The notes beneath the pieces are model-generated. The model saw nothing but the letters and a program-made list of their open reading frames with translations, searched no databases and had not been told where the DNA came from. Position numbers and translations under genes: made by a program. A stretch of DNA of 64,000 bases from an uncultured Chloroflexia bacterium. Lineage in GTDB: Bacteria > Chloroflexota > Dehalococcoidia > DSTF01 > JALHUB01. Numbering within the stretch: position 1 is the stretch's first letter; every line of letters starts with the position of its first letter. Positions 23,135-43,751 of the stretch are shown piece after piece. The stretch spans positions 8,342-72,341 of the forward strand of contig CAWJHZ010000007.1 in the NCBI GenBank assembly GCA_963842845.1, in the 5' to 3' direction.

Positions 23135-23173
23135 AGTGCGCAAGTGGCCTGCCCCCGAAAACGAGTCCACCCT

Positions 23174-24025
23174 CTATGTTACTCGTACAGGTAGCATCTG
23201 GTGTGACAGAGCTATACTTCCCGTCCACGGCAGCACCGTCTCCGGCGCCGGTGGCCGGTAACCCAGTGAGCTGTGGGGACGCACCGCATTGTAGTGCCGT
23301 CGCCAGCGCTCCACAAGCACCTGCGCCTCAAGAAGCGTGTCGAAGATCTCCGGGTTCAACAGCTCGTCCCTGAGCTTGCCATTGAACGACTCGACGTAGC
23401 CGTTCTCCCAGGGACTCCCGGGCTCTATGTACAGGGTCTTTACTCCTACCCTGGTCAGCCACTCCCGTACTACCTTCGCCGTGAACTCCGTGCCGTTGTC
23501 GGAGCGCAGGTGGCAGGGAGCGCCCTTCTCCACAAAGAGCTGAGCGAGCACCCCCAGAACGTCATCGCTGGTGATCCTCCTCGCCACGTATATGGCTAGG
23601 CACTCCCTGCTGAACTCGTCGATAATGACCAAGAGCCTGAAGGTGCGCCCGTCCCTCGTCCGCGCCGCCACGAAGTCGTAGCTCCAGACGTGTCCCTTGA
23701 AGGCGGGTCGCAGCCTCACGCAGGAGCCGTCGGTGAGCCAGAGACGCCCCCTCTTGGGCTGTCTCCTTGGCACCTTCAGACCCTCAAGCCGCCACAGCCT
23801 CTCCACCCGCTTGTGGTTGACTCGCCAGCCCTCACTGTTCAACATCGCCGTCACCCTACGATATCCGTATCTCCCGTACTCCGCCGCCAGCTCTACCATC
23901 CGCCGCACCAGAAGGGGCTCGTCAGATGGCGGCGCTCGTCCTCTCCTCTGGGTCGAACGTATCTGATTCAACACCAAGCAGGCCCGGCGCTCCGATACCG
24001 CCTCCCGGCCGAGCGCGTCCCTCAC
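23174..24025 (-). CDS. IS3-family transposase OrfB (DDE / rve integrase core)
   Basis: 283 aa. rve-type core ...[43 protein letters not shown]...[10 protein letters not shown]...[25 protein letters not shown] (the D, D, E catalytic context). Confidence 0.8.
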
Positions 24026-24057
24026 GTGCTCGACCGCAAGACCCCTCTTGGCCGGGC

Positions 24058-24336
24058 TCAGAAGTTTCCCTGGGCCGCCTCACGCAGAATGGCGTTGTCC
24101 AAGGAGAGGTCCGCCACCAGCTTCTTCAGCCGGGAGTTCTCCCGCTCTAGGTCCTTAAGCCTCCTCGCCTGATCCCTGCCCAAGCCCCCGTACTCCTTGC
24201 GCCAGCGGTAGTAGGTCTGCTCCGCCACCCCCAGCCTCCGGCATACGTCGGACACGGCAACGCCCTGCGCTAGAGCGACCTCAGCCTGTCTCAGCTTGCC
24301 GATGATTTCCTCGGCCGTGTGCTTCTTGCTGCCCAA
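24058..24336 (-). CDS. IS3-family transposase OrfA (HTH)
   Basis: 92 aa. [48 protein letters not shown] helix-turn-helix. Directly upstream of orfB in a different frame. Confidence 0.75.
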
Positions 24337-24677
24337 TTCAGATGCCCCCTTTCTTCGGCCCAGTATCCGATATTCCCTCGCTGAAGAGTAACATTGGATC
24401 TGGACTCGTTTTCGGGGGGCAGGTCAAAGACAGCGCCAGCAGTCCTCGCGGCTGTGGACGGTGAGGTCAAAGTACACCCACCCGCCGCAGTGGGGACAGC
24501 GCCGGCAGCCGATACTAGCCACACTCGGCAATGTCATTGTCCGAGTTTAGGAGGTGCCCACTCTTCGTGCAAGGCTGCGGCATGCCTCACAGCCCTCCAG
24601 GTTGACAGCCGTGCTATGATCCGCGTGATTCACTTTCTGCATTCCCAACCTGTTCACCTCTGCCAAGGAAGTGTGCG

Positions 24678-25247
24678 ATGAGACGACTAATAGGCCTGAC
24701 GCTCGTGCTCGCGGCCTTCTTTGGCCTTACCTGCAGCAATGGGAACAAGAACGGCGGCCCGTCCTTCGCGCAATTGGTTATGTCTTTCAGGACTGCGACG
24801 TTCCACGGAAAGTATGACGTTCGGGTCAACAACACTCTGGCAGGCAGTATTGAATGGTTCCAACTGCCGCCTCGCACTCGACTGGACGTGTCGATTCTGG
24901 GGAGTACCGAGACGACCCTCCTCACGCCTGACGGCAACTTCAAATGTGATGCGGGCCAATGTCAGAACACTTCGGGCAGCGAGGAGACTCTCGCTAAGGG
25001 GTTCGACGAGCTTCTCACAGGGACGCGAGTAGTCAGCGACAGTCGGAGAATCATCGCCGAAAGGGATGGATTCTGCTTCGACGTGGAGGCCACACAGGAA
25101 ATCAACTTCAAGACGGGCGAAGTCTGTTTCGACGCCAACGGTTTCCCCCTCTTGCTTACAGGAAACGACGGAACTGGCGAAACCAGCATGGAAGCAATGG
25201 AGCTCAGCGACCGCGTCTCTTCAGATGCTTTCGCACTGCCCAACTGA
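24678..25247 (+). CDS. lipoprotein, cassette A of the secreted-protein array (no C-terminal sorting tail)
   Basis: MRRLIGLTLVLAAFFGLTCSNG signal peptide with lipobox. Preceded by the shared promoter-leader cassette and followed by the shared 3' element at 25284. Confidence 0.55.
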   Translation: MRRLIGLTLVLAAFFGLTCSNGNKNGGPSFAQLVMSFRTATFHGKYDVRVNNTLAGSIEWFQLPPRTRLDVSILGSTETTLLTPDGNFKCDAGQCQNTSGSEETLAKGFDELLTGTRVVSDSRRIIAERDGFCFDVEATQEINFKTGEVCFDANGFPLLLTGNDGTGETSMEAMELSDRVSSDAFALPN

Positions 25248-25417
25248 CCGCCCGTTCATGATCCAGCTAGACCGCCACGGCAATGTGTGAAACTGTCCAT
25301 GTGAGAACCGCCTCCGCTCAGGGGGAATTGGCCTAACCGACGGTTGACATCAGTGCTATAATCCTCTTGGTTCACTTCTGATTATCCCCGCCGACCCGCC
25401 AACAGGGAGGTTGTGCG

Positions 25418-26173
25418 ATGCGTGTTGCCGTTCCCCACAAAGGCCAGAGGGCACCTCTTCTGTTGTTCCTGCTAATACTTGGGCTTATGGCCACGTTGGC
25501 CGCAGCCATCCTCTGTTCATGGGTTTCGTCGCCCGGGGCGGTCGCTTCGGGCCCCCTCCACGGCATCAGCTTCCTCAAGGGCTGCGCCGGTCCTACGAAC
25601 GTGGGTGACCCGTACAGCTGCACGTTCCGCGTTTCAAACACTGTCGACCAGGCCAGTGACACCCTGACGATCACATCAGTTGTTGATGTCGTACATGCTG
25701 GCTCAGGCGACGTCTCTTCGGGCAATTTGCTGCCGGGCGCAACGTTCACTTTCACCGGAGGAGCATTCTGCAACGTCGGCCAAACGCTCTGCACGCTCCC
25801 GTTCGGCGCGTCTATCACCTTCACGACAAGCCATTACACCGTTCAGCCCACTGATCCGAACCCATTGACCGACAATGCTTCATTGACGTGGCAGGACACC
25901 TGTTCGAGCGGCTCTGGAAACTGCCCCGCGGGAGACCAAAGTGGCTCCAGTGGGTCTTGGTCGGCGGTGCAGACGCTCACGCCGACGCCGACGCCGACGC
26001 CGACAAGCACGCCTACACCGGTCCCTTACGGCTGGGTCGGCGGCATAGCGGAACCGCCCGATGTCGCCGAATCAGCGGGCGGATCATCTTCGCTACCATT
26101 CGCTGGCATCGCTGCAGGCGTCATTGCACTAGGAGCGGGCGGCTGGTATGCCAGGAGGCGCTGGCTCCACTAG
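25418..26173 (+). CDS. secreted protein, cassette B: N-terminal Cys-containing domain, PT linker, C-terminal sorting-signal-like tail
   Basis: Signal peptide. The domain is shared with the paralog at 33880..35247. The TPTPTPTPTSTPTP linker is followed by VGGIAEPPDVAESAGGSSSLPFAGIAAGVIALGAGGWYARRRWLH (motif, hydrophobic helix, basic cluster). Confidence 0.65.
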   Translation: MRVAVPHKGQRAPLLLFLLILGLMATLAAAILCSWVSSPGAVASGPLHGISFLKGCAGPTNVGDPYSCTFRVSNTVDQASDTLTITSVVDVVHAGSGDVSSGNLLPGATFTFTGGAFCNVGQTLCTLPFGASITFTTSHYTVQPTDPNPLTDNASLTWQDTCSSGSGNCPAGDQSGSSGSWSAVQTLTPTPTPTPTSTPTPVPYGWVGGIAEPPDVAESAGGSSSLPFAGIAAGVIALGAGGWYARRRWLH

Positions 26174-26200
26174 CAATCCGCAGCGAAGACCGGCATCGCC

Positions 26201-26226
26201 GTGTGTGAAACTGTCCACGTGAGAAC
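26201..26226 (+). repeat. conserved 3' cassette element GTGTGTGAAACTGTCCACGTGAGAAC (one of five copies; others at about 25284, 27521, 29130 and an orphan at 39856)
   Basis: Exact or near-exact 24-26 nt repeat found 25-35 bp after the stop codon of each cassette gene. It is co-conserved with the last codons (CGCTGGCTCCACTAG) and a CAACCCGCAGC spacer. Confidence 0.7.
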
Positions 26227-26414
26227 AGGGTCATGGCAGGGAGAAGAGGGATGACTAACCGCTGATTGACATCCTCGCCCAACTCAGAGTACCTTGCGGG
26301 AGCCTGGGCAGGAGCAGTCCTCTGTCATGATGGCACAAGCGACTTGCGCTAGGCATCAGGTTACGATCTGCCGAAGTCGTCCCCGCCCTTGCTTCTCAAG
26401 AAAGGGATTTCAAC

Positions 26415-27494
26415 ATGCCACTCAAATCGCCCCCCACAAGTGTACGTCTTCGATTACTGGCAGGTCTCATGGCAGTCGCCGTGCTATCGTTGGTCGCAGG
26501 TGTCACGCCCTCCTGGCCACAGCCCGTACACGCCGCATTTCCCGGGATCAACGGCAAGATCGCTTTTCAGAGCGACCGCAACGGCGCCTATCAGATCTAT
26601 AAAATGAATGCTGACGGTAGCGGTCAGACTCGTTTGACGAACAATGCGGCCAACGATACAACGCCCGCATGGTCTGCTGATGGTTCCCAAATCGTCTTCG
26701 GCAGCACGCGTGACGGCAACCCCGAGATCTACAAGATGAACGCTGACGGTACGGGGCAGGTACGCCTCACTAACAACACAGCCAACGATCTTTGGCCATC
26801 GTGGTCCCCCGACGGCTCCAAGATCGTCTTCACCAGCGACAGGGACGGCCAGTTCCACACCTACGTCATGAACGCCGATGGCAGCAGTCAGGCTCTTCTC
26901 GGCCCGGGTAACACCGACGACGAGTGGCCGGCCTGGTCGCCAGACGGGTCGAAGATAGCGTTTGTCAATGGGAACGGGGTCATTTACGAGCTCTATACGA
27001 TGAACGCCAACGGCACGGGTCGTACCCAACTGACCTTTGACGGCGCCATCAACACATCGCCTGACTGGTCTCCAAACGGATTGAAGATAGCGTTTGGCAC
27101 CGATCGTGGGGGGAACCGCGACATCTACCTGATCAGTGCCAGTGGCGGTGCCGAGACACGCCTTACCAACAACGGCGCTGTCAACGGCAACCCGGCCTGG
27201 TCTCCCGACGGCCAGCGCGTCGTCTTTTCCTCCAACAACCAGGTCTATGTCATGAACGCGGATGGTAGCAGCCAGACGCGTCTGACCAACGACTCAGCAG
27301 ATGATCTGTCGCCTGACTGGCAGCCGATCAAGCTGGCGGCCGTCGGTGGTATCGCAGAGCCTCCTGACATCACCCAATCAACGAGGGGATCATCGTCACT
27401 GTCGTTCGGTGCTCTTGCTGGCATCGCTGCAGCAGGAGTCGTGGTAGTCACTGTAGGTGGGTGGTGGTACGCACGGAGGCGTTGGCTCCGATAG
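26415..27494 (+). CDS. secreted TolB-like (PD40/WD40-like) beta-propeller protein, cassette C, with the same C-terminal sorting tail
   Basis: Repeats of the form ...DG..IVF.S.RDGN.EIYKMNADGSGQ.RLTNN.A.D..P.WSPDG... (at least six blades). Tail VGGIAEPPDITQSTRGSSSLSFGALAGIAAAGVVVVTVGGWWYARRRWLR. Confidence 0.65.
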   Translation: MPLKSPPTSVRLRLLAGLMAVAVLSLVAGVTPSWPQPVHAAFPGINGKIAFQSDRNGAYQIYKMNADGSGQTRLTNNAANDTTPAWSADGSQIVFGSTRDGNPEIYKMNADGTGQVRLTNNTANDLWPSWSPDGSKIVFTSDRDGQFHTYVMNADGSSQALLGPGNTDDEWPAWSPDGSKIAFVNGNGVIYELYTMNANGTGRTQLTFDGAINTSPDWSPNGLKIAFGTDRGGNRDIYLISASGGAETRLTNNGAVNGNPAWSPDGQRVVFSSNNQVYVMNADGSSQTRLTNDSADDLSPDWQPIKLAAVGGIAEPPDITQSTRGSSSLSFGALAGIAAAGVVVVTVGGWWYARRRWLR

Positions 27495-27668
27495 CAACCC
27501 ACGGCTAGACCGCTACAGCAGTGTGTGAAACTGTCCACGTGAGAACGCCTACAGGACAGGGTGAATTAGGCGCATTGACAAGGGTTCAAACGGTGCTATA
27601 ATCTCCGCATTGGTGGCTCGTTACTGATTATCCCCCGTCATGGATTCCCGCCCGATAAGGAGAGTTGA

Positions 27669-29108
27669 ATGCGCACTGTGACTCCTTCAGTGGGGTTGCG
27701 GGTTTTTCTGGCTACGATGACCTTGGGCGTACTTCTGATCCTGTTGACGACGGCGTCGGAGAGCCGCGCCACCGGACCCTGGACAGTACTCCAGCCTGCA
27801 CCCGTCGCTCGTATGGGATTGCATACCGTAGCCTACGACAATAACGGACATCTCTTTGTTACCACAGGGCTGCTCGACTGGACCACCCCCACGGACGGCT
27901 TCTATCGTTACGATATCGCCACAGATTCCTGGACTCAGTTAGCATCTACACCCCAGCGGATGTTTGACAGCAAATCGGCCTACGATGGCGCAGGGCACAT
28001 ATACCTCATTCAAGGAGGGAATTACTCTTTTACTGCCGTACACAACTTCTATCGGTATGATATTGCCTCGAACACTTGGTCCCAACTCCCGCCGGTTCCA
28101 CTGGACTACGTGGCTGAGGCAGCGTCCTGCTCTGATGGGCGGCACATGTTCGTTACCGGCGGGAATCTGTACGATGTCCAGCACTTCTACTCCTTTGATA
28201 TGACGACGCTCGTTTGGACTGAATTGGCTTCGCCTCCGGGGATCATGTCTGGAGACTCCTTGAGATACGCCTGGCAGAACGCGTGCGCAACCGATGGGCA
28301 GGGCGTGTATCTGTTCGGCGGGGATACCGTTAACGGCGATGGGGACCATCCCATTGTCTACACGAATCGGCTGGTTCGATATGACATAGCAACTAACCAA
28401 TGGTTCCGCCTGGCTGACGGCCCAGAGATTATGATAGACAACGTGGCGGTCTATGATGGTCATCATCGCATACTCGTTTCAAGAGGCTTCCAGCCCCTTG
28501 AGAGCGGCGATTGGGTACCAACAGCCCAGTTGTACTCGTACGACATCAGCTCTGACGAGTGGACACAAATGCCGGATGCGCCCGGCCCTATGAGCGGGAA
28601 CAGTGGTGCCTACGATACCAACGCTGACGCTTTCTTTATCACTGCCGGCCTTGGCGATTCCGACGCAGCTTCCCTCTACGAGTTCGAGGAGAATCTCGTT
28701 CCACCGACCAATACGCCGACTCCCTGCCCTGGATCAGGGTGCCCAACTTCAACGGCTACGAGCTCACCCACGTCGATGCCTAGTCCATTACCTACGTCGA
28801 CGCCCAGTCCTTCGCCCACGTCGACGCCTAGCCCATCACCCACGTCTACGCCTAATCCATCACCTACGTCCACCCGCAGCCCATCCGCCACGCCAACACC
28901 TCCGCCTTCGGCAACCGCCAAACCCTCACAAGGCGTCGGAGGCACGGTGATGCTCCCGCCAGCCGCTGTGGTTGCTGCCTCCGATACCACGGCTGAGGAC
29001 TCCGGCTGGTCAGGTGGCGCGTATGCGGCGCTGGCTGTCGGCCTAAGTGCGGCGTTTGCGGCGCTTGGCGTCGGCGGCTGGTACGCAAAGAAGCGCTGGC
29101 TCCACTAG
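27669..29108 (+). CDS. secreted Kelch-repeat beta-propeller protein, cassette D, with P/S/T-rich linker and the same sorting tail
   Basis: Kelch-like blades (YRYDIATDSWTQLASTP, YRYDIASNTWSQLPP, YSFDMTTLVWTELASPP, VRYDIATNQWFRLADGP, YSYDISSDEWTQMPDAP). Linker SPTSTPSPSPTST... Tail ...GGAYAALAVGLSAAFAALGVGGWYAKKRWLH. Confidence 0.65.
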   Translation: MRTVTPSVGLRVFLATMTLGVLLILLTTASESRATGPWTVLQPAPVARMGLHTVAYDNNGHLFVTTGLLDWTTPTDGFYRYDIATDSWTQLASTPQRMFDSKSAYDGAGHIYLIQGGNYSFTAVHNFYRYDIASNTWSQLPPVPLDYVAEAASCSDGRHMFVTGGNLYDVQHFYSFDMTTLVWTELASPPGIMSGDSLRYAWQNACATDGQGVYLFGGDTVNGDGDHPIVYTNRLVRYDIATNQWFRLADGPEIMIDNVAVYDGHHRILVSRGFQPLESGDWVPTAQLYSYDISSDEWTQMPDAPGPMSGNSGAYDTNADAFFITAGLGDSDAASLYEFEENLVPPTNTPTPCPGSGCPTSTATSSPTSMPSPLPTSTPSPSPTSTPSPSPTSTPNPSPTSTRSPSATPTPPPSATAKPSQGVGGTVMLPPAAVVAASDTTAEDSGWSGGAYAALAVGLSAAFAALGVGGWYAKKRWLH

Positions 29109-29465
29109 CAACCCGCAGCCAACACGGGAGTGTGTGAAACTGTCCACGTGGGCACCCACACCAAGGGAAGATGTTGTCACCGCCAGACGGTCTGCGGAAC
29201 AGGTGATCTGCCCCACAAGCCGCGCCTGTCCGCCGGCCACGCCCTGCGTGTTCAAGGACTTCTGGCAGGGCTGGCGGGCCCGAGATGTGAAAATGGATCT
29301 ATTCGCCACTTGACAAGCGCCTACAAGATGTTATACTCCGCTTTGCTGGTGGAAATTCCCTGAATCCCCGCCGAACTCGAAGTCCTCGCCAACAGAGAAT
29401 TTGTGTGGCGGCGAGTTCTTATTGCTTGAATGCCGCTTGCGCGGTTCCTATTCGGAGGTGGCGAA

Positions 29466-30530
29466 ATGACAAAGAGACTTCTCGTCGCGGCTATCATCTT
29501 CGGGTCTTTCATGGTATCGGCGGCCGGAACCACGGCCAGCCCAGCTTATGGTTTTGTCCAAGTCAGCGGAGGTCTGGACTACACATGTGCTATGGAGGCG
29601 AATGGCAGCCTCATTTGTTGGGGGGGAATCTACGGGGCGTCTTATCCCTTTGCGGATATGTTCAGCCAAATCAACGCCGGTGATGACCATGGTTGTGGAG
29701 TCAGAGTTGACGGTACCTTGGAGTGTTGGGGTGATAATTCCGTCGGGCAATCAACACCTCCCTCCGGCACCTTCACTCAAGTTAGCGCTGGCTTCCGGTT
29801 CACTTGCGGGGTAAGGACGAATGGTGTCATAGCCTGCTGGGGAGCCAATGATGAAGGTCAGTTGAACACTCCATCTGGCACGTTCGGCCAGGTAAGCGCT
29901 GGCGGCTACCATGCCTGTGGCTTGCGAACGGACGGGACTCTGACCTGCTGGGGTTGGGACAACTTTGGGCAAGCGTCACCTCCGAGCGGCACTTTCGGGC
30001 AAATTGATGCAGGATATGAGCAAACATGCGGAGTGAAGACTGACGGCACTATGGTTTGTTGGGGCAATAATCAATACGGACAGTCCACTCCGCCGGCGGG
30101 GACATTCACGCATGTCGCCTCAGGTTATATTCACACTTGCGGAATAAAGACCAACGGCACTATCGCTTGTTGGGGATACAATGGCTTTGGACAATCAACG
30201 CCTCCGTCTGGCGTCTTTGCTCAAATCGGGGCCGGGTACGACCATACCTGCGCCATAAACTTGAGCGGAGCAATTGCCTGCTGGGGAGACAATGAATCGG
30301 GGCAGGCAACGCCACCAGTACTGCCACCTCCCCCATCTCCGACACCCGGCAGCGTCGGCGGCAAGATACTGCTTCCTGTGGCGTTGGACCCTCAGCAAGA
30401 TTTCGATGGGGCAAGAGGAGCTTCTGGAGGGTCGGGTATCCCGCTGGCTGCGTGGCCTGTGCTGGCCAGTGCCCTGGGAGGCGTTTTGGCGGCGGCTGGC
30501 TGGCGTGCACGGAGGCGCTGGCTGAGGTAG
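29466..30530 (+). CDS. secreted RCC1-repeat (BLIP-II-like) beta-propeller protein, cassette E, with the same sorting tail
   Basis: RBS GGAGGTGG then ATG (MTKRLLVAAIIFGSFMVSAAG). Seven repeats of the form ..CG...DGT..CWG.N..GQ..PPSGTF.Q..AG. Tail VGGKILLPVALDPQQDFDGARGASGGSGIPLAAWPVLASALGGVLAAAGWRARRRWLR. Confidence 0.65.
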   Translation: MTKRLLVAAIIFGSFMVSAAGTTASPAYGFVQVSGGLDYTCAMEANGSLICWGGIYGASYPFADMFSQINAGDDHGCGVRVDGTLECWGDNSVGQSTPPSGTFTQVSAGFRFTCGVRTNGVIACWGANDEGQLNTPSGTFGQVSAGGYHACGLRTDGTLTCWGWDNFGQASPPSGTFGQIDAGYEQTCGVKTDGTMVCWGNNQYGQSTPPAGTFTHVASGYIHTCGIKTNGTIACWGYNGFGQSTPPSGVFAQIGAGYDHTCAINLSGAIACWGDNESGQATPPVLPPPPSPTPGSVGGKILLPVALDPQQDFDGARGASGGSGIPLAAWPVLASALGGVLAAAGWRARRRWLR

Positions 30531-30691
30531 CCCGATTCCAGCGCCTCGCGAAGACCGCTGTTGGGTCGCTCAAAAAAGCCATCGCGACCCCATATGACAC
30601 TAAGTGTGGATGTTGATGGCTAGGTTCGCCATTCCAGCCCAAGGCCGGGCCGCCCGACGAATGCCCCCTCGAGCGCCAGACCCGGCCTCAG

Positions 30692-33515
30692 CTACTGCGC
30701 CGGTTCCCGCTCAAGGTTGAGGCGCAGCAAGCGGGTGACGATCTCAGAATCCGACAGCGCGTCAGACGGCTCCTGCCACCCGTAAGCGGCGAACACCGCC
30801 TCGTCCAGCTTGCGATGCGCGTTTACCAGCCACATGGGGCGCTGGTTGTAGAGCTTCGTAAGCGTGCGGCGTTCTGACTTCTTCACGCCCGGCTTTTCCT
30901 CCGGCGCCTTCAGCCAGTTCTGGCGGGGCTCTTCCAACTCCCGCGCCGCCTCTGCGATTGCGCGCTGCTGCTCTGGCGATGGTCTTGGGAACGAGAACGT
31001 CTCGAAACAGGTTGTCGGGGTATAACGGAAACCGCTCTCCACTTCTCGCAACTGGGTGCCGGTGGCGCGCGCCCACACCTCATGAGCGCGGGAGTGCACC
31101 ACGCCGAAGAAGTAGTCATCATCGCGAGCGAAGACTATGGTGGCCTGGTTGCAGAGGACCTCGGGAGCCACCCAGACGAAAAGACGGTGCTTCGAGTGGC
31201 AGGGCGTGGCTATGAATCTCCACATGCCCTGCAACGCCCTTCTCATGTTTACCCTCGGCTCCCCGTAGATCCACCACCGGTCGGCGTATGCCTTACGTCT
31301 GTTTCTCTCGCGGATTGGCTTCACAACAGAGCGCAGGTGCTCGAAAGGCATTTCGTACTGGGCCGCTTGTTCCTCTCTTGTCCCAGGAGGGAAGTCGATT
31401 GTCCACAAGCCCCGTGGGCGCTGGACCAGATCGACGGCGCTCATCAAAGGTCTTACGATGTCGCTGTTTGGGCGCCCGTTAGGATTCCTAGACCTCAACA
31501 TGCGCCTGGCAAGTTCCGCCGAGATGTCAAACCCCGCCTTCGGTGACGGCCCTTGGAAGCAAATCCTCAGGTTCTCTCTAAGAGGTCGAGCCATCGTCAG
31601 AATCGACACCCGCCGTCAAGTTGGCGTTGATAACTGCAACTTGGTGCCCGTCGAGCGTCCGCTCTAGCTCTGAACCCTTGTCGAAGCCGAGCATCGAGAC
31701 GTGGACCGCCGCCCCGTCCAGAATCCAAGGCCTGTCCGAATAGGCCAAGAACATCTCGCCCGTCTCTTTTATCCGCTCAAGAACGCGCCTATTTGCGCCG
31801 CCCCGAATGCCCTGTGTTGCCAAGAGTCCTGCTCTGGTTGATCGTTCGTCGGCAATCATCTCACGTGCTTGTTCAAACCAATAACAGCAGAGGTCGCTGA
31901 AATGGGGAAGCCGGTCACCATACAGCGAGAACAACGCTTCGACGTATTCGCCGCCAAGATGTTTGCGCAACAAGCTTCCCCCCAAGAACGGAGGATTTCC
32001 GACGATTACGTCCGCTTCCGGCCACTCAGGGATACGCGGCTGGCTGGGGTCCGAGAGGTCAACGATTGCGTCCCTCATCTCTATCTGGTCGAGCGGTTGA
32101 AGGATGGGAGTCTCGTCCGTGAACGGGATCACGTTGCGGTGCTTCCATTGCAGGTAGCCTATCCAGATGACTATAGACGCCAGCTCGCGGGCGTACTCGT
32201 TGATCTCGATGCCCATCAGCTGGCGCGGGTGAACGCGCGGGGAGAGTGGAACGTCGTATGACGCCGCGAAGGCGATAACCTCCTTCTCCAGAGCCTTGAG
32301 GAGAGCCAGGGAGACGTAGAGGAAGTTGCCGGAGCCGCAAGCGGGGTCAAGGACACGGATGGTCGCCAGCCGCTCATGAAACGTCTTTAGAGCGCCGGCG
32401 ATGCGGCTGTGCAGCGTCTCCGGCTTGAACCGCCGGGAGGCCGCGTTCTCCGATAGGTCCTCCGCCGCCACCTTGATCTGGTTCCATTCCCGTCTGAGAG
32501 GGGCCATCAGCACCGGCTCCACTATTAGCTCGATGTCGACACGAGACGTATAGTGCGCGCCGACCTGTCGCCGCTTCTCACGGTCAATAACGCGCTCAAA
32601 AAGAGTGCCGAAGATTGACGGCTCGACATCGGCCCAGTTGAGGCTGTCCAGGTCCTCCAGCAGGCGGACATGCTCGCCGTGGATCTCGTCGGGAACGTCG
32701 CTGTCCTCGAACAAGCGGCCGTCGAAGTAAGGGACGGAGTGCATGAGGAACTTGCCGCCCTTCCGCATGACCTCGAAGAGCTCCGACAGGTTCTCGCGGA
32801 ATGCGGCGGGGTCGTCCTTGTTGACGTTGATGACCTCGCTAAAGGTCTCGCGCGGCAACAGGCCCACGTCTGTCGCGAACATGCAGAACATGACCCGCGT
32901 CACGAAGCGAGCGATGCGCATGTCCTCTACCTTCCATTTGCGCAGGTCATCGGTGATGCGGCCGAAGAGCTTGGCGGCCTCCTGTGTGATCTGCTCGGTA
33001 GTCCGGAGAGGCTTCAGGCGCTCGGGCTCCTCGAAGAGCGCCTTCAGGACTTGGAGGGCTGTGAGCTTCGGGGCGTCGGCAGCGGGCCCGCCGTAAGTGG
33101 TGACTTCGACCGGCTCGTCCAGCGCGATGTCGGCGTTGCGGAAGCGGTAGATCCAGGTCTCTGTGTTGGTCCAGTTGGTGTGGACTTCGAATCGTTCTAT
33201 GTCGCAGACAACGAGCAGCGGCGGGTTACCCAGCGCCTCGCGATACGTCTGAACCTGCTTGTAAGCAATCCCGAGGTCTTTGTGTTTGCCCTTGTACTCC
33301 CAGGCGAAATGGTTCTTGAGCCATACGTCCGCGAACCCGTCGCCGTCAGGTTTCTTCGCGCCTTTCTCAAACGCGAAGAAAGCGCCGCTGGGGTCGGCCT
33401 CGTTCGGGGTCTGCTCGTTGAGCAACCGGCACAGGTCAATGAAGTGCTCCTGCGCAGCCGCATTTTCGCTCTGGGTGGAGGCGGCCCACTTCTTGACGAA
33501 TCCAAGGGAGTCCAT
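30692..33515 (-). pseudogene. second MmeI-family Type IIL RM gene (paralog of 12442..15228), interrupted by a +1/-1 frameshift near 31580-31610 in the TRD; possibly inactive or a sequencing artefact
   Basis: Two overlapping ORFs (31578..33569 and 30692..31609) together reproduce the full architecture: nuclease block, VLDPACGSGNFL, GNPPF, TRD, conserved C-terminus. ATG at 33515 is preceded by TATAAT 7 bp upstream. The frame switches at ACGGCGGGTGTCG (GGG run). Both frames align with copy 1 on either side of the switch. Confidence 0.7.
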
Positions 33516-33879
33516 GAATGCGATTATAGCGAAGGATCGTGGAACCGCCAATGTGGGCTTTTGCCGCAAGGAGTTATTTCAGGACCGACACGATCAGGTC
33601 ATCGTGTGCGGTCCCGCGCACAACGGCTCGGGATGTCGTCAGGCGACGCCCGCCTCGACAGACAGCGCATGAACGGTTCGCGAGTCGAGCGCGCTGACCG
33701 CGTCACGCCGCGCACGCCAGTTGGGGGTTCTTGCGCTCGCCCGACTACGATCTCTTCGATGTCGCCCCTCACCCTCGGCTGGGATAATCGCCATGCGAAA
33801 CCAAGCAAACAGTTGGGGAAGGCGTCTGTCGCCTTCCCCAGCTAGTGTCTTTGGTTTAGATGTGGCTTCTACCGGTTGA

Positions 33880-35247
33880 TTACCACCACCACCAGAAGTG
33901 ACGGTCAGGCCCGTAGCACTGCCTGTCGTGCGACCATTGAATCACGAAGCCAGTGCAAACCTTCGGTCGCGACGGCGTGGCCGTAGGCGTCTTGGTCGGT
34001 TTCGGCGTCGCCGTTTGACATTGACATGGCGGCTTTGTTGTCGGCGTGGCCGTGTGTGTCGGGCTCGGCCCTCCAGATGGAGTCGGTGTGGCCGTAGGCG
34101 TCTTGGTCGGTTTCGGCGTCGCCGTTTGACACGGCGGCTTTGTTGTTGGCGTCGCCGTGACCGTGTTTGTAGCCGTCGGCGTCGCAGTATCGGTCGGCGT
34201 GGCCGTGTCCGTGGCCGTCGGCGTCGCAGTATCGGTCGGCGTGGCGGTGTCCGTGGCCGTCGGCGTCGCAGTATCGGTCGGCGTGGCCGTGTCTGTGGCC
34301 GTCGGCGTGGCCGTGTCTGTCGGCGTGGCCGTGTTCGTAGCCGTCGGCGTGGCCGTGTCTGTCGGCGTGGCCGTGTCCGTGGCCGTCGGCGTGGCCGTGT
34401 CTGTCGGCGTGGCCGTGTCCGTGGCCGTCGGCGTCGCAGTATCGGTCGGCGTGGCCGTGTCCGTCGGCGTGGGCGTGGGCGTGTTCGTAGCCGTCGGCGT
34501 GGCCGTGTCCGTCGGCGTCGGCGTGGCAGTATCGGTCGGCGTGGCCGTGTCCGTAGGCGTCGGCGTGGCTGTATCCGTGGCCGTCGGCGTGGCTGTGTTC
34601 GTGGCCGTCGGCGTGGCTGTATCCGTGGCCGTCGGCGTGAACGTACTCGTCGGCGTCGGCGTGAGCGTCTGCACCGCCGACTGAGACCCACTGGAGCCAC
34701 CTTGGTCTCCCACGGGGCAGTTTCCAGAGCCGCTCGAACAGGTGTCCTGCCACGTCAATGTTGCATTGTCGGTCAATGGGTTCGGATCATTGGCCTGAAC
34801 GGTGTAATGGCTTGTCGTGAAGGTGATAGATGCGCCGAACGGGAGCGTACATAGCGTCTGCCCACCGTTGCAGGATGCTCCGCCAGTGAAAGTGATGCTT
34901 GCGCCCGGCAGCAGGTTGCCCGAAGCTACGTCGCCTGAGCCAGCATGTACGACATCCACCACTGATGTGATCGTCAAGGTGTCACTGGCCTGGTCAACCG
35001 CGTTCGAAACGGAGAACGTGCAGCTGTACGGGTCACCCACATTCGTAGGACTGGCGCAGCCCTTGAGGAAGCTGATGCCGTGGAGGGGTCCCGAACCGGT
35101 GTTCGCCTGAGCCCAGGGGGACCAAATGGCCGTCGCGGCGATCATGGCTAAGCCCACCGCCAGGACCAAGGCGGCTCCTCCCCGTCTTCCGATCACCCGG
35201 GCAGCGCGCCTTGTGCTGTGGTCGTCGCTCGTATACCTCATTTCCAC
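33880..35247 (-). CDS. secreted protein, paralog of cassette B domain, with a long ([14 protein letters not shown])n linker; lacks the sorting tail and ends ...HFWWWW
   Basis: The N-terminal 200 aa are about 85% identical to 25418..26000 ([10 protein letters not shown]...[16 protein letters not shown]). Then about 180 aa of perfect PT-type repeats. Two KPPCQ segments at the C-terminus. Confidence 0.55.
34150..34690. repeat. tandem DNA repeat (about 42-bp unit, roughly 12 copies) encoding the [14 protein letters not shown] linker
   Basis: Periodic GCCGTCGGCGTGGCCGTGTCCGTGGCCGTCGGCGTCGCAGTATCGGTCGGCGTG... read directly. It produces mirror-image artefactual ORFs on both strands (VAVGVAVS..., [10 protein letters not shown]...). 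Confidence 0.7.
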
Positions 35248-35691
35248 CTCTTCTACGATGTGGCGCGGCGTTCCAATGCCGCGGAGTCCGACTGTTGCTG
35301 GACGCCGTCATCACCAGCCTCCGCCCTTCCACCGATCATAAGCACCAGATCGTTTCGGGTATATCGGTATTTTCCCTTATTTGCTGCGGTCGTCTTTGAC
35401 CAAAGCAAAGCCGGGACGACGCGGTCCTGGCGTCCGCTTCTGGCTACGCATCGATAGCGTATCGCCTTGACTTCCCCGCACACTAATGCATCATGGTGGG
35501 CGCCTTAGACCGGCTTCAATGGCGCGATCAGTGGCGCGCCTCCCGCGAACCCGGCGCTTGAGACATCCATGGCGACGGGCGGAGACGCGACTTTGGCGTG
35601 AAGCTTGAAAGATGGACAAGGGGCTGACAGCGAACTGAGCTCACGGTTACCTAGGCAGCAACTGGGTCGGCGAATGGCCCGCAGCGGATAG

Positions 35692-37671
35692 TCAACCAGT
35701 CGGCGCCCCGGGCCCGTAGATCACGACGTCATAGAATGCGCCGTAGGTGAGACCTAGCTTGCCACCGCTTGGGCCATCCGGGTCGACAATGCTGTAGGAG
35801 TCGCCTGATTTGCCTGAAAGTACGATCCAATGCGGTATGCCTAGCTTGCCCTTCACTTCAACGATCGGCGGTCTCCCCTGAGACAGCGCGTTGTCGATGG
35901 CCTGTTCCCTTGCCGCCAGATCATATTGGCTTGTCCGCAGGATCGTCGGCTCGCCGACATATCCACCAGTTGAGTTGGCGGCGACCTCCCAAGAGATTTT
36001 GCAGCCTCCGTAGCCACCGTGGGCCGTGAGCCATCTGTTGAGATTGTCCGGGCTGACCGGTCCGTATCCCTGAGTCAGCTGAGGCGTTCCGTAGTAGGCG
36101 AGCACATCTGCAACGGATGTCAGCGCGCACCCCGCGACTGCAACAGTAGGGCACCCGGACTTGCCAGCGAGATGATCATTGCCCCATCCCAGATCCCTTT
36201 GCTTGAAATCGGGTACCCCTGTGTACTTGATGGTGGCATAGTCGTACCCAGTGCCCAGGCCAAAGGAGTCACCTGTCACGTAGACATTGCCCGCGCCGTC
36301 CACGGCTATGGCCCGGGGTTCGTCAATTCCCTTGCCGGGGCCGTTGTAGCGTTGTGCCCACTGCTCGCTCCCTTTTGGCCCGTATTTGATAGTCGCGAAC
36401 TCGTCCTCGCCGCTAGACACAAACGAGGAGCCGGTCACGTATGCGTTGCCTAGTGCATCCACAGCGATGGCCGAGGCCACGTCATCGCCGTTGGCCGGGC
36501 CGTCATAGCGGGCCACCCACTGCCTGTCGCCGTCCGGCCCGTACTTGATGGTGGCGTAGTCGTCGTGACCACCAGAACCTCCAGAGCCACCTGTGACGTA
36601 GACATTGCCCGAACCGTCCACGGCAATGTCGTTGCCTGAATTCCATGCGTGACGTGCATCCGGACCATGGTAGTAGCGCTCCCACACCATATGCCCGTCT
36701 GCCGCTCCGAACTTGACGGTTACACAGTTGACGGCGGCACCTTCGACCCAGCCTGTCACGTACGCGTTCCCCAGAGCGTCGACAGCAAGAGCCTGGACGC
36801 CCCCCTGGAAACCCAGGGGTGGATAGTAACCCACCCACAGCAGGCTCCCGTCCGGCCCGTACTTCACGATGGCGAAGTCGTAGCCATAGTTCGCGGAGGG
36901 ATCAATATCATAGCCCTGACCCGCCACGTACACGTTGCCAGCGCTGTCTATTGCGATGTCCCGGGCGTGGTAATCGTAGCCGTCCGGGAGCCTGAAGCGA
37001 CGTGCCCACAACTCGCTCCCGTCCGGTCCGTATTTGACGGTGGCGTAGTCGTACAAGTTGTCGGGGCCCTGAGATGACCCCGTCACATATGCGTTCCCTT
37101 GACGGTCCACGACCAGGCCAACAGGCCGATCGGACCCAGCACCTCCACTGCTGCACGGGCCGGAGCCGTTACCAGGGCCGTTGCATCGTCGCGTCCACAG
37201 CTCCCTCCCGTCCGGTCCGTACTTTATGGTGAGGTAGTCATTCCCCGTATCGACGCCCTCTGACAAGCCTGTGACGTACACGTTTCCCTGGTTGTCGACT
37301 GCCACAGCGACGGCCTCGTCAGAGCCGTTGGCCGAGCCGTTGTATGACTTTGTCCACAGAACCGTCCCGTCTGATGCGTACTTCGCTGTGGCGTAGTCCG
37401 TTCCGCTGACAGAGCCTGTGGAGTAGCCTGTGACGTATACGTTGCCTGAGTTGTCCACAGCAACCGCCGCGCTACGATCGTCGCCACTGGCAGAACCGTC
37501 GTAGCGGGCCACCCAATCTCGCGTAACCACGCCGCTGCCGTTCGCGACGAGGCTCTCGCCAGGGACTGGACCGGCACGGGCACGCGAAGGGCCCAATAGC
37601 AGCCCGCCGACAACCGCCAGCACAGAGAAGAGGTATTGTAGGGTGGTTCGCCCAATTGGAGCGTGCATCAT
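35692..37671 (-). CDS. secreted SBBP-type beta-propeller repeat protein with a C-terminal putative papain-like/C39-like cysteine peptidase domain
   Basis: Signal peptide. At least eight repeats YDG...DD.A.AIAVD..GNVYVTG.S.G. The C-terminal region has CPTVAVAGCALTSVADVLAYYG ... GIPHWIVLSG (candidate Cys and His). Domain call is tentative. Confidence 0.45.
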   Translation of the reverse strand: MMHAPIGRTTLQYLFSVLAVVGGLLLGPSRARAGPVPGESLVANGSGVVTRDWVARYDGSASGDDRSAAVAVDNSGNVYVTGYSTGSVSGTDYATAKYASDGTVLWTKSYNGSANGSDEAVAVAVDNQGNVYVTGLSEGVDTGNDYLTIKYGPDGRELWTRRCNGPGNGSGPCSSGGAGSDRPVGLVVDRQGNAYVTGSSQGPDNLYDYATVKYGPDGSELWARRFRLPDGYDYHARDIAIDSAGNVYVAGQGYDIDPSANYGYDFAIVKYGPDGSLLWVGYYPPLGFQGGVQALAVDALGNAYVTGWVEGAAVNCVTVKFGAADGHMVWERYYHGPDARHAWNSGNDIAVDGSGNVYVTGGSGGSGGHDDYATIKYGPDGDRQWVARYDGPANGDDVASAIAVDALGNAYVTGSSFVSSGEDEFATIKYGPKGSEQWAQRYNGPGKGIDEPRAIAVDGAGNVYVTGDSFGLGTGYDYATIKYTGVPDFKQRDLGWGNDHLAGKSGCPTVAVAGCALTSVADVLAYYGTPQLTQGYGPVSPDNLNRWLTAHGGYGGCKISWEVAANSTGGYVGEPTILRTSQYDLAAREQAIDNALSQGRPPIVEVKGKLGIPHWIVLSGKSGDSYSIVDPDGPSGGKLGLTYGAFYDVVIYGPGAPTG

Positions 37672-37925
37672 GCTGCTCCCGCGGCTTTTGAGAGTGTCCC
37701 GATCCTAGATGATGTCCTTTCGATCCCCTTATCGGAAGAAAGGGCCGAATCTAGAGCGGGTGTAACCCTGTAGACCTGCTCAGCGATGCCGGTAGGTGGA
37801 GAGTGGAGCGATCATTGACTAGCAGAGTCTCTCGCTGCGAGCATCTGCTCTTGAGGACTGGCTTGACTTCCGCGCACACTAATGCAATATGGTCGTGATT
37901 CTACGTTTGCGAAGGAGAAACGACC

Positions 37926-38858
37926 ATGACAGCAACCATCATCCCCATCGGCGAGGAAGCCGCTGGCTGGGAACGTGCTCTGTACGCATTCCTTGCCGAA
38001 AAGGAGCGACGCAGCGGCTCAAGACGAACAGTCGAGGGTTATTCCAGAACCCTCCAGCACTTCTTCGGGGCCATCGGCAAGCCGCCCGACCGGATCACGA
38101 GTCAGGAGGTCTTCGCCTGGGCCTACGGCAAGGGGTTGTCTGGCAAGGAGCCCTCGGCAATCACGATCGGGGCCAGGCTTGCCTGCCTCAGTTCCTTCTA
38201 CCGCTTCCTGATCCGCATGGAGATCGTCTCCGCCAACCCCTGCGACCAGATCGAGCGACCCAAGCCCTCGCCCAGCCCACCGCGGGGGATCAGCGCCGAG
38301 GGGATCAGAAAGCTGCTCACCGTCATCCCCGAGACGCCGGCCGGTCTGCGGGACCGAGCCATCATCCTCACACTTGTCTTGACGGGTCGGCGCCGCGCAG
38401 AGGTCTTCAACCTGAAGGTCGGCGACCTCATTCGAACCGATGGCCTCTTCTACACCTACCGCGGCAAGGGAGGCAAGCAGGGGAAGCGGGAACTGCCTTT
38501 ACCCGCATTCGAGGCGATTAAGGTGGCGCTGGCCGCATTCGCCAAGGACCTCGACACGATGAAGCCCGGGGAGTCACTCTGGCCATCGCCCGGTCGGAGC
38601 GGCACTGGCATCACCAGCGGCACCTTCTATGGCAACCTGCAGCGCTACCTGCGCAAGGCGGGGCTGCCGCCCGCCGGCGTCCACATCTTCCGCCACAGTG
38701 CCGCCAAGCTACGGCGAGACGTCGGAGAGTCGGTGGAAGATGTCAGCCTTTTCCTCGACCACAGCTCGCTGGCGGTCACGACGGTCTACCTGCGGAGGCT
38801 CGAGGGGCAAGAGGACAGGAATTGGCAGAAGGTGGCGATGGCACTGGGTATCTGTTGA
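37926..38858 (+). CDS. tyrosine-type site-specific recombinase / phage integrase family
   Basis: 310 aa. Catalytic region ...GLRDRAIILTLVLTGRRRAEV...HIFRHSAAKLRR (HxxR)...LAVTTVYLRRL (Tyr). Its N-terminus and 5' flank are duplicated at 21426-21715. Confidence 0.8.
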   Translation: MTATIIPIGEEAAGWERALYAFLAEKERRSGSRRTVEGYSRTLQHFFGAIGKPPDRITSQEVFAWAYGKGLSGKEPSAITIGARLACLSSFYRFLIRMEIVSANPCDQIERPKPSPSPPRGISAEGIRKLLTVIPETPAGLRDRAIILTLVLTGRRRAEVFNLKVGDLIRTDGLFYTYRGKGGKQGKRELPLPAFEAIKVALAAFAKDLDTMKPGESLWPSPGRSGTGITSGTFYGNLQRYLRKAGLPPAGVHIFRHSAAKLRRDVGESVEDVSLFLDHSSLAVTTVYLRRLEGQEDRNWQKVAMALGIC

Positions 38859-38965
38859 ATACAGCGACTGAGCAGTCACAGAGACGAATCGCACAGGGCC
38901 GGCCGCGAGGCCGGTCTTCTCGTTCTAAGCGCGCGGTCGATAATGCCAGTAGGAAGGAGCTAGAG

Positions 38966-39322
38966 ATGACGAACGCCGCCAGGGATGAAAAGGACATCGA
39001 GCCGCTCTCGGACGCTGGACAAGTCCGCAACGACATGGTTTCTTGGGTCGCGGACTTGGCGCAACAGCATAAAGAGGACGCGGCCAATCCGGACTCAAGA
39101 CTCTCTCTCCTACACCTAGACGAGGGGCATCTGCGTCATGCCTCTCCCTCCCACGTCAACGAGTGGCATCTGATCCAGGCCTCCCGATTGGGGAAATTGG
39201 CGGACTTTCTCGAAGCCCTGCCAGACGACGACCCGCTCATCCAGTCAGAGACACGGCAGGCCATGCGAAAGTGGCACGACCAACGGATCGAGGAGTGGTT
39301 CGACTATATGGCCAAGTTTTGA
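38966..39322 (+). CDS. hypothetical protein
   Basis: RBS AGGAAGGAG, 8 bp, ATG. 118 aa, acidic. No recognisable motif. Confidence 0.35.
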   Translation: MTNAARDEKDIEPLSDAGQVRNDMVSWVADLAQQHKEDAANPDSRLSLLHLDEGHLRHASPSHVNEWHLIQASRLGKLADFLEALPDDDPLIQSETRQAMRKWHDQRIEEWFDYMAKF

Positions 39323-40100
39323 GCGGGGGAGAGCGGCGACGACGCTCAACCAGTACCGTGCCTATCATCGAGGCCAAAACGTCGATTATCTCACTGAGAG
39401 GCGAGAAAGGTGTCAGGTGTGCGTAGACTCGGAGTGCTGGCAATAGGTACAGCTATTCTTGGCTGGGTGGTTAACAACCTGCTGAGAACGGATGAGGACA
39501 AGGCTGTTTCATCAGTGATGGGGCCGCCACGCCACGAAGATGCGAATTCTAACGGGGCGACTTTCCCGCGAGAAGCGGAACCAGCCTCTCTAGCAGCTGA
39601 CCTCCCTCCTGGACAAGCAGACCCTCTCGACGAACCTGCGAATGTCATTCCCCTGGAAGCCATGCGCGCGCATCCCCCCCGGAATCGTCCGCCTTCGCCG
39701 CCGAACGAAAACGGAAATGCGAGAATGAGACGCGCTCGAAATGCCGTCGATAAACGCTTCCGGCAATTGCCGGAAAAGGGTGATCGACGCAAGAGAGGCG
39801 CAGCTTAGCCATCGCGGGTCTGGCTCCACTGGCAGCCCGCAGCTAAGACGCGACCGTGTGAAACTGTCCACGTGCGAACACCTACGGTAACCCCTGCAAT
39901 GAGACCGCTCACTAATAGGCGGCCTCCCTTGAAGACGTTGGCGGACGCTTGGAGTGTGACGCTGGCGTCCTCATTGCGAGCGAGTATTCAGATAAGCTTG
40001 GTTTCTATTCGAGATGCGCTACCAGTTTCTATCTGCGTCGTGGTAGAATCGAGCGCAGGATGAGGCGGGGCATCCGAATCTATCCTCGGAGGTCAACGAT

Positions 40101-42155: not shown

Positions 42156-43751
42156 GTGACAGAAGAGCAAACCCCTGTGGCGGTCTACATGCGGGTCTCA
42201 AGCGACGACCAGCGGGACCGCGAGACGATCAAGACGCAGCGTGAGGCTATCGACCGCTTCCTCGCGCAGAACCCTCAGTACGTCGTCTACCGCTACTACG
42301 AGGACGACGGCGTCTCCGGCACTGTCCCCATGGCCGTGCGACCCGGCGGCGCTCAAATGGTCGCCGGCGCCAAGGCCGGCAAGTTCTCCAAGATCATCGT
42401 CCTGCGCGCCAGCCGACTTGGCCGAGAGGAGATCGACCTGCTCACAACCTACAACCTGTTCGTGGACGCGCTGGACATCGAGATCATCGGCGTCGCTGAG
42501 CCGCTTGGCGACCGGACGATGTTCGGCTTCCAGTCCATCATGGCCGGCTATGCCCGTCGTCAGTTCCTCGCTGACTCGGCTCGGGGGATGGACAGGGCGG
42601 TGCGCGAAGGTCGCTTCACCGGCGGGATCGTGCCGACTGGCTACAGAGTTGAGGGCCGTAGGCAGACGGCCAGGCTTATCCCCGATGACACGATCGTCTG
42701 GGGCGATTGGACCGCGGTAGACCTGATCCGCCGCATCTATCACTGGCTGGGCGTTGAAGGGAAGAGCTGCCGCTGGATCTCCCGCGAACTAAACTCGCTC
42801 GGCGTCCCCACCGCGTACCAGCGAGACGGTCGCGGCGTGCGCGGCAAGCGTACGCAGGAACTGTGGCGGCCGGGACGGATCCGGCAGTTGGTCGTCAACC
42901 CGGTGTACATGGGAACGCTCCTCTATGGGCGCCGCAGAAGTCGTTACTCGAAGAGGACCGAACTAATCCCCGGCGCCGTGCCGGCGCTGGTGTCCAGCGA
43001 GCTCTGGGAGGCTGCGCAGCGAACCCTGGCCGCCAACCGTATCTGCGCCAAGAACACGCAAAGAGTCTACCTTCTCCGCTCGGTGATGGTCTGCGGAGTC
43101 TGTGGCCTGCACTACGGCGGAACTCCCGGAAGGGACGGTATCTCTTGGTACCGCTGCAACGGCCAGCTCGTCGAGCGGGGCAGGATCGATGGCAAGTGCC
43201 CGGGCAAGTCCATTCGCTCGGACTGGCTAGAACCTATCGTCTGGGATGACATCGAGCGATGGCTGCGCAACCCCGGCGATCTCCTCGACGAGATCAACGT
43301 CGACGAGGAGCAGGAGAACCAGCGGGCGATTATCGAAGCGGAGCAAATCACTCTTCAGAAAGCACTAGGGGGATTAGCTGAGCGACGCAAGAGGGCAATC
43401 GACCTCCACGTCCGAGGACGCATCCAGGAAGCCGAACTGGATGAGATTCTGGAAAACCTACACAAGGAGAGAAGCGCCCTGGAAGAGCGTCTCGCCCGCA
43501 TCGCTCTCCCCGTCGAGGAGGAAATCGAAACGCTGGACCCGGACCTGCTCGCCAAGCTACGGCGACGCCTGAATGCGGGCCTCGACGATGCCACCCGTCA
43601 CGAGGTCGTCAGATTGCTCGTCCGCCAGATTCTGGTAGACACGGTTTTCGTCGAGAATGGACGGAAGATGCTCAGAATCCGGATTGAGTACCGATTCCCT
43701 GCTGTACCACCGTCTAGCAGGGGCACGGGTTCATCGCCGCGACGAGCATGA
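42156..43751 (+). CDS. large serine recombinase (resolvase/invertase N-domain, recombinase domain, zinc ribbon, coiled coil)
   Basis: [12 protein letters not shown] catalytic Ser motif. ...RLGRE... Zinc ribbon [10 protein letters not shown]...YRCNG...C. C-terminal coiled-coil region. 531 aa. Confidence 0.8.

Follow-up and report, generated by a model that had tools for sequence, protein, structure and literature searches.

The ssrA islands of Dehalococcoides stand in tandem, are bounded by a 20-bp direct repeat and include 15 without an integration module, for which mobilisation in cis was proposed (McMurdie et al. 2011, PMC3146451). Integron cassettes carry attC sites, imperfect palindromes (R''-L''...L'-R') that are recognised as a folded single strand and conserved in structure; clusters of attC that lack an integrase belong to the same kind. 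In staphylococcal cassette chromosome (SCCmec) composite islands and in pdif (Xer) modules, short conserved sites delimit modules that a recombinase encoded elsewhere can move; the SCC repeats, which need the Ccr serine recombinases, originate from the 3' end of rlmH, and pdif sites are 28-bp XerC-6-XerD sequences of partial dyad symmetry and alternating orientation. Repetitive extragenic palindromic sequences with their bacterial interspersed mosaic elements (REP/BIME) and enterobacterial repetitive intergenic consensus (ERIC) sequences, finally, are short non-coding repeats after genes, palindromic or hairpin-forming and present in tens to hundreds of copies, some of which serve as targets of insertion sequences (IS). 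Here we describe an element, E, from a 64,000-nt stretch of DNA of an uncultured Chloroflexota bacterium (the window); the name covers the full element, a 5' box plus a core. Judged from sequence comparison, the chances are about even that E is the conserved directional core of an attachment-site-like (att-like) recombination junction bounding cis-mobilisable cassettes, one used in a narrow clade of soil, peat and sediment Chloroflexota.

The core, GTGTGAAACTGTCCAYGTGRGAAC, is found five times in the window, always on the + strand, where no copy is expected by chance. A 26-mer matches at 25283, 26201, 27521, 29130 and 39854 with 0-3 mismatches each, as against 0.00 copies expected from dinucleotide-preserving shuffles, and the 17-mer GTGAAACTGTCCACGTG is observed 5 times with 0.12 expected. 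These are the five places given in a preliminary description of this DNA, and all five copies were recovered there. Four of them (c1 to c4) fall between tandem genes, and the remaining copy, c5, lies some distance downstream:

24678..25247, + strand: gene 1, a secreted protein of 189 aa with no sorting tail and no Pfam match
25263..25308, + strand: E copy c1, 5' box plus core ATGTGTGAAACTGTCCATGTGAGAAC, 36 nt past the gene 1 stop
25418..26173, + strand: gene 2, 251 aa, with a PT linker and the tail ...GGIAEPP...GGWYARRRWLH-stop
26178..26226, + strand: E copy c2, 28 nt past the gene 2 TAG stop
26415..27494, + strand: gene 3, a PD40 beta-propeller plus tail
27498..27546, + strand: E copy c3, 27 nt past the gene 3 TAG stop
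27575-27602: consensus sigma-70 promoter downstream of c3
27669..29108, + strand: gene 4, a Kelch propeller with PT repeats and tail
29118..29155, + strand: E copy c4, core ending in GGGCAC, 22 nt past the gene 4 TAG stop
29310-29337: promoter downstream of c4
29466..30530, + strand: gene 5, RCC1 repeats and the tail ...RRRWLR-stop, last gene of the array
30548..30558, + strand: truncated E past gene 5, 5' box retained and core gone
39817..39879, + strand: E copy c5, with the 15-nt tail-end remnant TCTGGCTCCACTGG and an altered stop codon

The array therefore has five tandem genes but only four intergenic copies of E, and the earlier statement that the element follows every cassette gene breaks down at gene 5, which keeps the tail end and the 5' box GCGAAGACCGC and has lost the core; from 30559 onward the DNA runs into a convergent MmeI-like gene. 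At c2, c3 and c4 the motif is indeed conserved together with a short spacer and the final codons of the gene before it, except that the ending before c3 is CTCCGATAG (WLR-stop) and not CACTAG. The c5 copy at 39854, which sits between an open reading frame (ORF) at 39410-39808 and another at 40101-41312, carries the same 15 nt of tail end as the tail genes with TAG changed to TGG; its sequence TGGCTCCACTGG is a tail end with a changed stop codon, just as had been noted. To call it the relic of a sixth cassette goes beyond the evidence: it is a remnant, and the same remnant travels with E elsewhere (L022 1293-1402, L011 and L006 3443-3540; L-numbers denote the related contigs or loci compared with the window). 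Since this remnant recurs with E in other genomes, it may be part of the element's left arm.

An alignment of 29 distinct copies with an exact core, drawn from the window, three metagenome-assembled genomes (MAGs) and 19 metagenome contigs, gave the consensus ...A-y-r-GCT-N5-7-CTAGACC-N3-ACGG-N3-GT followed by GTGAAACTGTCCAYGTGRGAAC. E is larger than was described, about 50 nt in all (5' box ...GCT-N-CTAGACC-N3-ACGG-N-GT plus core), with 24 near-invariant bases at its end and 25 semi-conserved ones before them. Conservation breaks off abruptly past GAAC, beyond which a few 3' arms recur, one of them, often present, being 25 nt long and loosely conserved. Read from the alignment, E shows two direct GTGWGAA(A)C repeats 16 nt apart.

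The exact 19-mer core is present in only 3 of 185,579 species-representative genomes, Chloroflexota MAGs of peat or soil origin that each carry 2-4 copies; its metagenome occurrences are on contigs from peat and freshwater sediment, and a profile search was used to add diverged and decaying copies. E is usually clustered (five copies within 2.7 kb in L022, three within 7.5 kb in L002, three in L001, two each in L019, L006 and L023), with an array spacing of usually 0.5-1.6 kb, and its orientation is uniform in every array (5/5 in the window, 5/5 in L022, 3/3 in L002, 3/3 in L001 and 2/2 in each of L019, L006 and L023), an outcome with a chance of about 2^-15 if orientation were random. The units between copies are mostly single, unrelated genes. 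In L022 the order is tail gene, E, a unit resembling a non-coding RNA (ncRNA), E, SnoaL, E, a reverse-oriented GYD gene, E, FAS1-type dehydratase, E; in L002 it is E, MFS, E ... E. Altogether the inter-E units comprise tail proteins, an MFS transporter, SnoaL-like, opposite-strand GYD, FAS1-type dehydratase and DUF3303 genes, and a non-coding unit, about 390 nt long, with a promoter and with a tRNA-like arm at its end. Tail genes precede about 12 of the 29 exact copies, with E on the same strand 22-60 nt past the TAG stop, and several more copies carry a short tail-end remnant. Because E separates functionally unrelated genes, it is not specific to tail genes. A motif abundant throughout the genome irrespective of gene context would be no more than a generic dispersed repeat, as the preliminary description had allowed; the context is indeed not restricted to tail genes, but E is rare (2-5 copies per carrying contig) and clustered, and so it is not such a repeat.

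The flanks of E form a mosaic. When the 300 nt on either side of 37 distinct copies were clustered, a right flank holding a 3' fragment of comM proved to have five left flanks across E: the tail genes of L010 and of L012, which differ from each other, an unrelated sequence in L020, a left-end fragment of IS3 in L037 and a mobile element with HTH and AAA_25 genes in L013. Conversely, the ncRNA-like left flank is followed by four different right flanks (L001, L019, L003, L022), and for the pairs {tail, IS-like} and {comM fragment, 'type P' arm} all four combinations occur. In pairwise comparisons of related contigs the ends of the homologous stretches fall a few bases at most from the core, for example at 1396 in L022/L004, at 2752 in L022/L006 and at 150 in L022/L003. 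Since E sits exactly where the neighbouring DNA of related genomes differs, a recombination site is its most likely role, rather than a terminator or an RNA element. The window also has the following features:

23145..24425, - strand: IS3-family element at the head of the array
37926..38858, + strand: tyrosine recombinase, 1 kb upstream of c5
42156..43751, + strand: large serine recombinase, abutting the truncated comM
43714-44778, - strand: truncated comM, cut after ...NPCPC, the insertion end carrying the large serine recombinase

In L037, a close relative of the window (85-94% identical), the comM-acetyltransferase locus has one tail gene and one decayed E. In the window that E is absent, comM is cut short, and the IS3 element and the five-gene array stand beside the acetyltransferase gene; at the position of the window's IS3, L037 has an IS3 left-end fragment, the decayed E and the comM 3' fragment.

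In two lineages E stands between a tyrosine integrase and HTH/AAA_25 genes, and each of these sides also occurs on its own, joined via E to different DNA. The gene order in L005 is AAA_25, HTH, E, terminator and tyrosine integrase, with E convergent with the integrase; L013 has homologous HTH (50% identical, E-value 2e-33) and AAA_25 genes joined via E to the comM fragment; and in L015 and L025 an integrase 82-84% identical to that of L005 is joined via E to other genes. Taken at the level of sequence, the junctions in L005, L013, L015, L025, L010 and L012 make up the pattern to be expected of attP, attR, attB and attL. Of the three roles proposed in the preliminary description (a protein-binding site, an RNA stability or localisation element, a recombination signal), the last is thus the best supported, by flank exchange with breakpoints at E, by the same-orientation arrays and by the integrase-element junctions.

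If E is an att-like junction, then direct repeats of E would bound small modules, most of them one gene with its own promoter. The window would hold a tandem "accretion" array of four such modules, each coding for a secreted surface protein anchored by its tail, with a fifth E placed on a recombinase-rich island. A recombinase supplied in trans would recombine two E sites conservatively, and because the recombination would be conservative the segment between direct copies could be released as a circle with one E and insert again at any further E site. The elements that bear integrases would use the same site. We infer that the exchange is site-specific rather than homologous and carried out by a dedicated enzyme, and presumably the cassettes are mobile at present. 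The core is invariant among copies with unrelated flanks while some copies are clearly decaying in place, which fits selection on a mobile unit rather than on the host. Were E an active recombination site, it would offer a simple sequence marker for variable cassettes in abundant uncultured soil and sediment Chloroflexota, and it would mean that arrays of single-gene cassettes can be built without the attC hairpins of integrons. The main cargo here consists of beta-propeller proteins that are secreted, anchored by their tails and end in what may be an undescribed sorting signal, suggesting that it is cell-surface variation that is being exchanged. For an uncultured phylum, a cassette junction that is defined by its sequence, has no hairpin and carries genes of surface proteins would be unusual, though near to known accretion arrays.

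A number of observations weigh against an att-like junction. We found no clean example of a pair of loci with the same flanks, one with and one without a given cassette, and saw no circular junction or excised form. The junction of E and comM in L013 rests on just 34 nt, the contig stopping there. None of the recombinases shows a consistent link with E across the loci compared: E is absent beside integrases 87% (L034-36) and 69% (L031-33) identical to that of L005, and the tyrosine recombinase of the window belongs to a very common family, more than 70% conserved, with varied neighbours and no consistent link to E. Simple sites of tyrosine and serine recombinases are usually dyad-symmetric; dyad symmetry was sought at every centre of E and none was found, the best centre having 7.3/20 complementary positions against a background of 5.0. 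Most copies of E lie just downstream of a same-strand gene, as a 3' element would, and homologous recombination between 50-nt repeats could yield the same flank mosaic.

Other signs of structure are likewise missing. E has no secondary structure on either strand (the mean folding z-score of 27 copies is +0.3 for the top and 0.0 for the bottom strand), and a terminator scan of the window found no terminator-like site (a GC-rich hairpin plus T run) at any copy, in agreement with the earlier view that there is no obvious hairpin and that E is probably not a simple terminator. Rfam 15 gave no match at the gathering score in the window or in 15 loci, and none at E<=1 across 24400-30700; E has no match in plasmid and phage collections. 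Several narrower explanations were discarded. A coding extension beyond the TAG stop is ruled out, the core frame differing between c2 and c3; so is a small reverse-strand ORF ending in ...VLTWTVSHTAVLV-stop, which shows no ORF conservation and is invariant at each of the three codon positions, and so is a hairpin of GGCAGU and ACUGUC with the loop GUGUGAA, whose 5' arm varies without compensation. A sigma-70, sigma-54 or extracytoplasmic function (ECF) promoter within E was rejected, there being no consistent -10 at fixed spacing across the three types of 3' arm, as were a hammerhead, other ribozyme or known RNA (no Rfam match) and a viral origin, the four IMG/VR matches sharing the 17-mer only and being chance hits.

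With these results the comparison with the described systems can be drawn. Like the ssrA islands, which occur in the same phylum, E modules stand in tandem, set off by a short direct repeat that keeps one orientation and has further conserved bases next to it; many modules have no integration genes, the region is one of high strain-to-strain variability, and at four loci E comes directly after a tRNA-like 3' end, starting 6-10 nt past the T-arm/acceptor end without overlapping it. Unlike the ssrA repeat, however, E is no copy of the 3' end of transfer-messenger RNA (tmRNA) or of any recognised gene, its modules are far smaller (0.5-1.6 kb, usually one gene) and form arrays at several loci, and it has no DsiB/CcrB-type serine integrase module beside it, the only adjacent integrase being of the tyrosine type, and that only in some lineages. 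With integron cassettes E shares arrays of mostly single unrelated genes, an element in one orientation that resembles a recombination site, and genes that mostly point the same way with an occasional reversed one; whereas attC is conserved in structure, E is conserved in sequence, without fold or dyad. Neither the conserved GTTRRRY of the attC 3' boundary nor a 5' RYYYAAC is found in the E alignment, where the core ends in ...GTGRGAAC. Moreover, E modules carry their own promoters and no integron-type integrase is present: none of the IntI type was found in the L022 or L002 arrays, and with the integron-integrase model TIGR02249, whose cut-off is 265 bits, the window's single tyrosine recombinase reaches 39 bits. 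The likeness to SCCmec composite islands and pdif modules lies in the short conserved sites, but E has neither the rlmH origin and Ccr dependence of the former nor the Xer-type architecture, partial dyad and alternating orientation of the latter. Similarly, E is a short non-coding repeat found after genes, as are REP/BIME and ERIC, but it is unstructured and rare. Because E fails to show the defining features of attC, dif/pdif, REP and the ssrA repeat, we class it in none of these and would place it instead with att-bounded modules. A bolder proposal, which we regard as doubtful, is that E belongs to a Chloroflexota integron-like cassette system as its recombination site. Such a site would be linear, double-stranded and conserved in sequence, the recombinase would have no relation to IntI, the cassettes would have their own promoters and the main cargo would be tail-anchored surface proteins, whose repertoire would be shuffled.

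The alternative that survives best, although we hold it to be rather unlikely, is that E is a cis-acting protein-binding site of the host, either an operator or upstream activating site for the next promoter or a ParB/HTH-type site. Host selection would then keep E, the mosaic of flanks would be a by-product of homologous recombination, and for mobile elements E would just be a conserved sequence that is convenient to target; homologous exchange between 50-nt repeats that the host retains for a function of its own is a serious rival to site-specific exchange. Twenty-four near-invariant bases without structure are what such a site might look like, and all four tail genes of the window, each of which has a gene in front of it, have E 28-157 nt upstream of the promoter, while the first gene, which has no tail, has no upstream E. 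A 3' arm that is loosely conserved (…CAGGGTGAA…) connects E to a tail-gene promoter in 9 or more copies. Nevertheless, the distance from E to the promoter varies (28, 36, 40 and 157 nt), the next feature past some copies is a convergent gene or a terminator (L022 E3, L005, L015), the genes downstream are functionally unrelated (MFS, cupin, dehydratase, hydrolase) and several copies are decaying. As to ParB, the core does hold a perfect parS half-site, GTGAAAC, together with the parS centre CCACGTGA, but E is no palindrome and is more than 2 mismatches from parS: neither the window nor any of 40 loci has a match to the 16-bp palindrome TGTTNCACGTGNAACA with up to 2 mismatches, and E aligns to it only when one deletion and one insertion are allowed.

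Two further alternatives are less likely than this one. E could be the conserved end of a small non-autonomous transposable unit, one-ended or resembling a miniature inverted-repeat transposable element (MITE) and possibly related to IS3, so that the left flank plus E would be copied elsewhere. We think this quite improbable. A composite of the IS3 left inverted repeat, a leader and E does recur, a full IS3 heads the window array, and the conserved block stops sharply at GAAC on its 3' side with recurring blocks (tail end, IS leader, tRNA-like arm) on the 5' side; yet no inverted partner of E exists anywhere, the array copies being all direct, no target-site duplications were seen, E is unlike IS3 ends, and the recurrence of right flanks with different left flanks is not explained by one-ended copying. 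The weakest, to which we give very little credence, is that E acts in RNA as a 3' untranslated region (UTR) element of the tail-protein mRNAs, in stability, in localisation to the secretion or sorting machinery or in factor-dependent termination: the strict strand orientation and the many copies past tail-gene stops with co-conserved last codons suit it, but there is no conserved structure or covariation (the sole possible hairpin has a freely varying 5' partner and an invariant 3' side) and no terminator feature or Rfam match, one window tail gene lacks the core, and E also follows non-tail genes, a reverse-strand gene, an opposite-strand integrase terminator and an IS fragment, so that the stability or localisation role suggested earlier is not borne out.

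Returning to the att-like junction, we also considered which elements of the window might act on E. E as the att site of the large serine recombinase in comM is ruled out, because the window comM is cut (after CCCTGC) 46 nt upstream of the E-comM join of other loci and the intervening gap shows no homology; the window does not contain the C-terminal third of comM. Nor is there support for c4 and c5 as attL and attR of a 10.7-kb island, or for c5 as the displaced E of gene 5, because gene 5 keeps its own 5' box and the integrase and ORF between which c5 sits are neighbours in another genome. The comM fragment directly 3' of E (TVSRYQKRISGP..., 35-105 nt) is a displaced one, the intact comM lying 2-3 kb upstream (L010 4558-4595, L012, L013, L020 and, on the - strand, L037 15505-15400); from its sequence it looks like the fossil left by integration into comM of an element with a replacement 3' end. 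The composite of IS3 left inverted repeat, leader of about 100 nt and E has the same junction at no fewer than 4 loci in three genomes (L001 3190-3340 and 4015-4168, L006 ~4150-4279, L037 15650-15506 on the - strand). The window has two copies, 16 kb apart, of the tyrosine recombinase promoter together with the first 76 codons of the gene (21423-21711 and 37857-38146), a third copy of a 37-nt segment of this promoter lies at 35461-35497, and an ORF at 21448-22128 is the 5' end of the recombinase fused to the 3' end of a serine recombinase whose gene is intact in L037; a tRNA gene is at 22067-22139 (- strand).

The tail that marks most of the array genes has the signature GG(I/V)AE(P/Y)P, about 15-20 residues, a hydrophobic helix and GGWYARRRWL[HRT], and its genes always end in TAG. 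It is found in the window at 26040-26173, 27340-27494, 28930-29108 and 30420-30530, and in homologues in L008-L012, L017, L019 and L023. No NCBIfam sorting-domain model matches it above cut-off, the best being LAETG (E=0.04, 13.7 bits against 30), and the tail may be a sorting signal that has not been described before. At their 5' side, tail genes have in common a conserved module of promoter and 5' UTR, TTGACA-N16-TGcTATAAT followed by ...CTGATTATCCCC... (window 24601-24680, 25343-25420, 27573-27670 and 29310-29470; L010 2069-2158, L011, L012, L017, L025); in the window copies at 24603 and 25345 the spacer between TTGACA and TATAAT is just 7 nt, leaving only the extended -10 usable. A paralogue of gene 2 with the same N-terminal domain lies at 33880-35247 (- strand); it has about 200 residues of TPTATD-type repeats, which are also a large tandem DNA repeat, and ends in ...FWWWW-stop without a proper tail. 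The MmeI-like restriction-modification enzyme, convergent with gene 5, appears as two overlapping ORFs, 30692-31609 and 31578-33569 (- strand), and is probably split by a frameshift. Exact-protein look-ups with the window genes matched short contigs of one sample only.

The ncRNA-like region of about 390 nt is 84-93% conserved between genomes (L001 4960-5347, L022 215-600 and, on the - strand, L019 ~1950-1565 and L003 ~6440-6030). It has a promoter-like TTGACT-N17-TACAAT site and a long hairpin, and its 3' end is a perfect tRNA-like T-arm (GAGGGTTCGAATCCCTC) with an acceptor strand and, in two genomes, an encoded CCA; ARAGORN made no call in it, tmRNA included, and Rfam gave no match at E<=1. 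E is always at most 10 nt downstream of it. Several contigs end close to E. In the long-read MAG MFD03726 both long contigs (the start of L002, 1.44 Mb, and the end of L005, 0.83 Mb) stop 0.4-1.4 kb from E, and the short Logan contig L026, identical to the window, ends exactly on the last base of the c3 core; such ends are compatible with population heterogeneity at E. A search for homologues of the L005 HTH protein returned only the protein itself. Finally, a family of hairpins, GGGAGGCC-N5-9-GACCTCCC, occurs on either side of E near integrase and HTH genes (L005 1350-1400 and 1470-1500, L013 110-150, L015 500-540), one copy being the integrase's intrinsic terminator.

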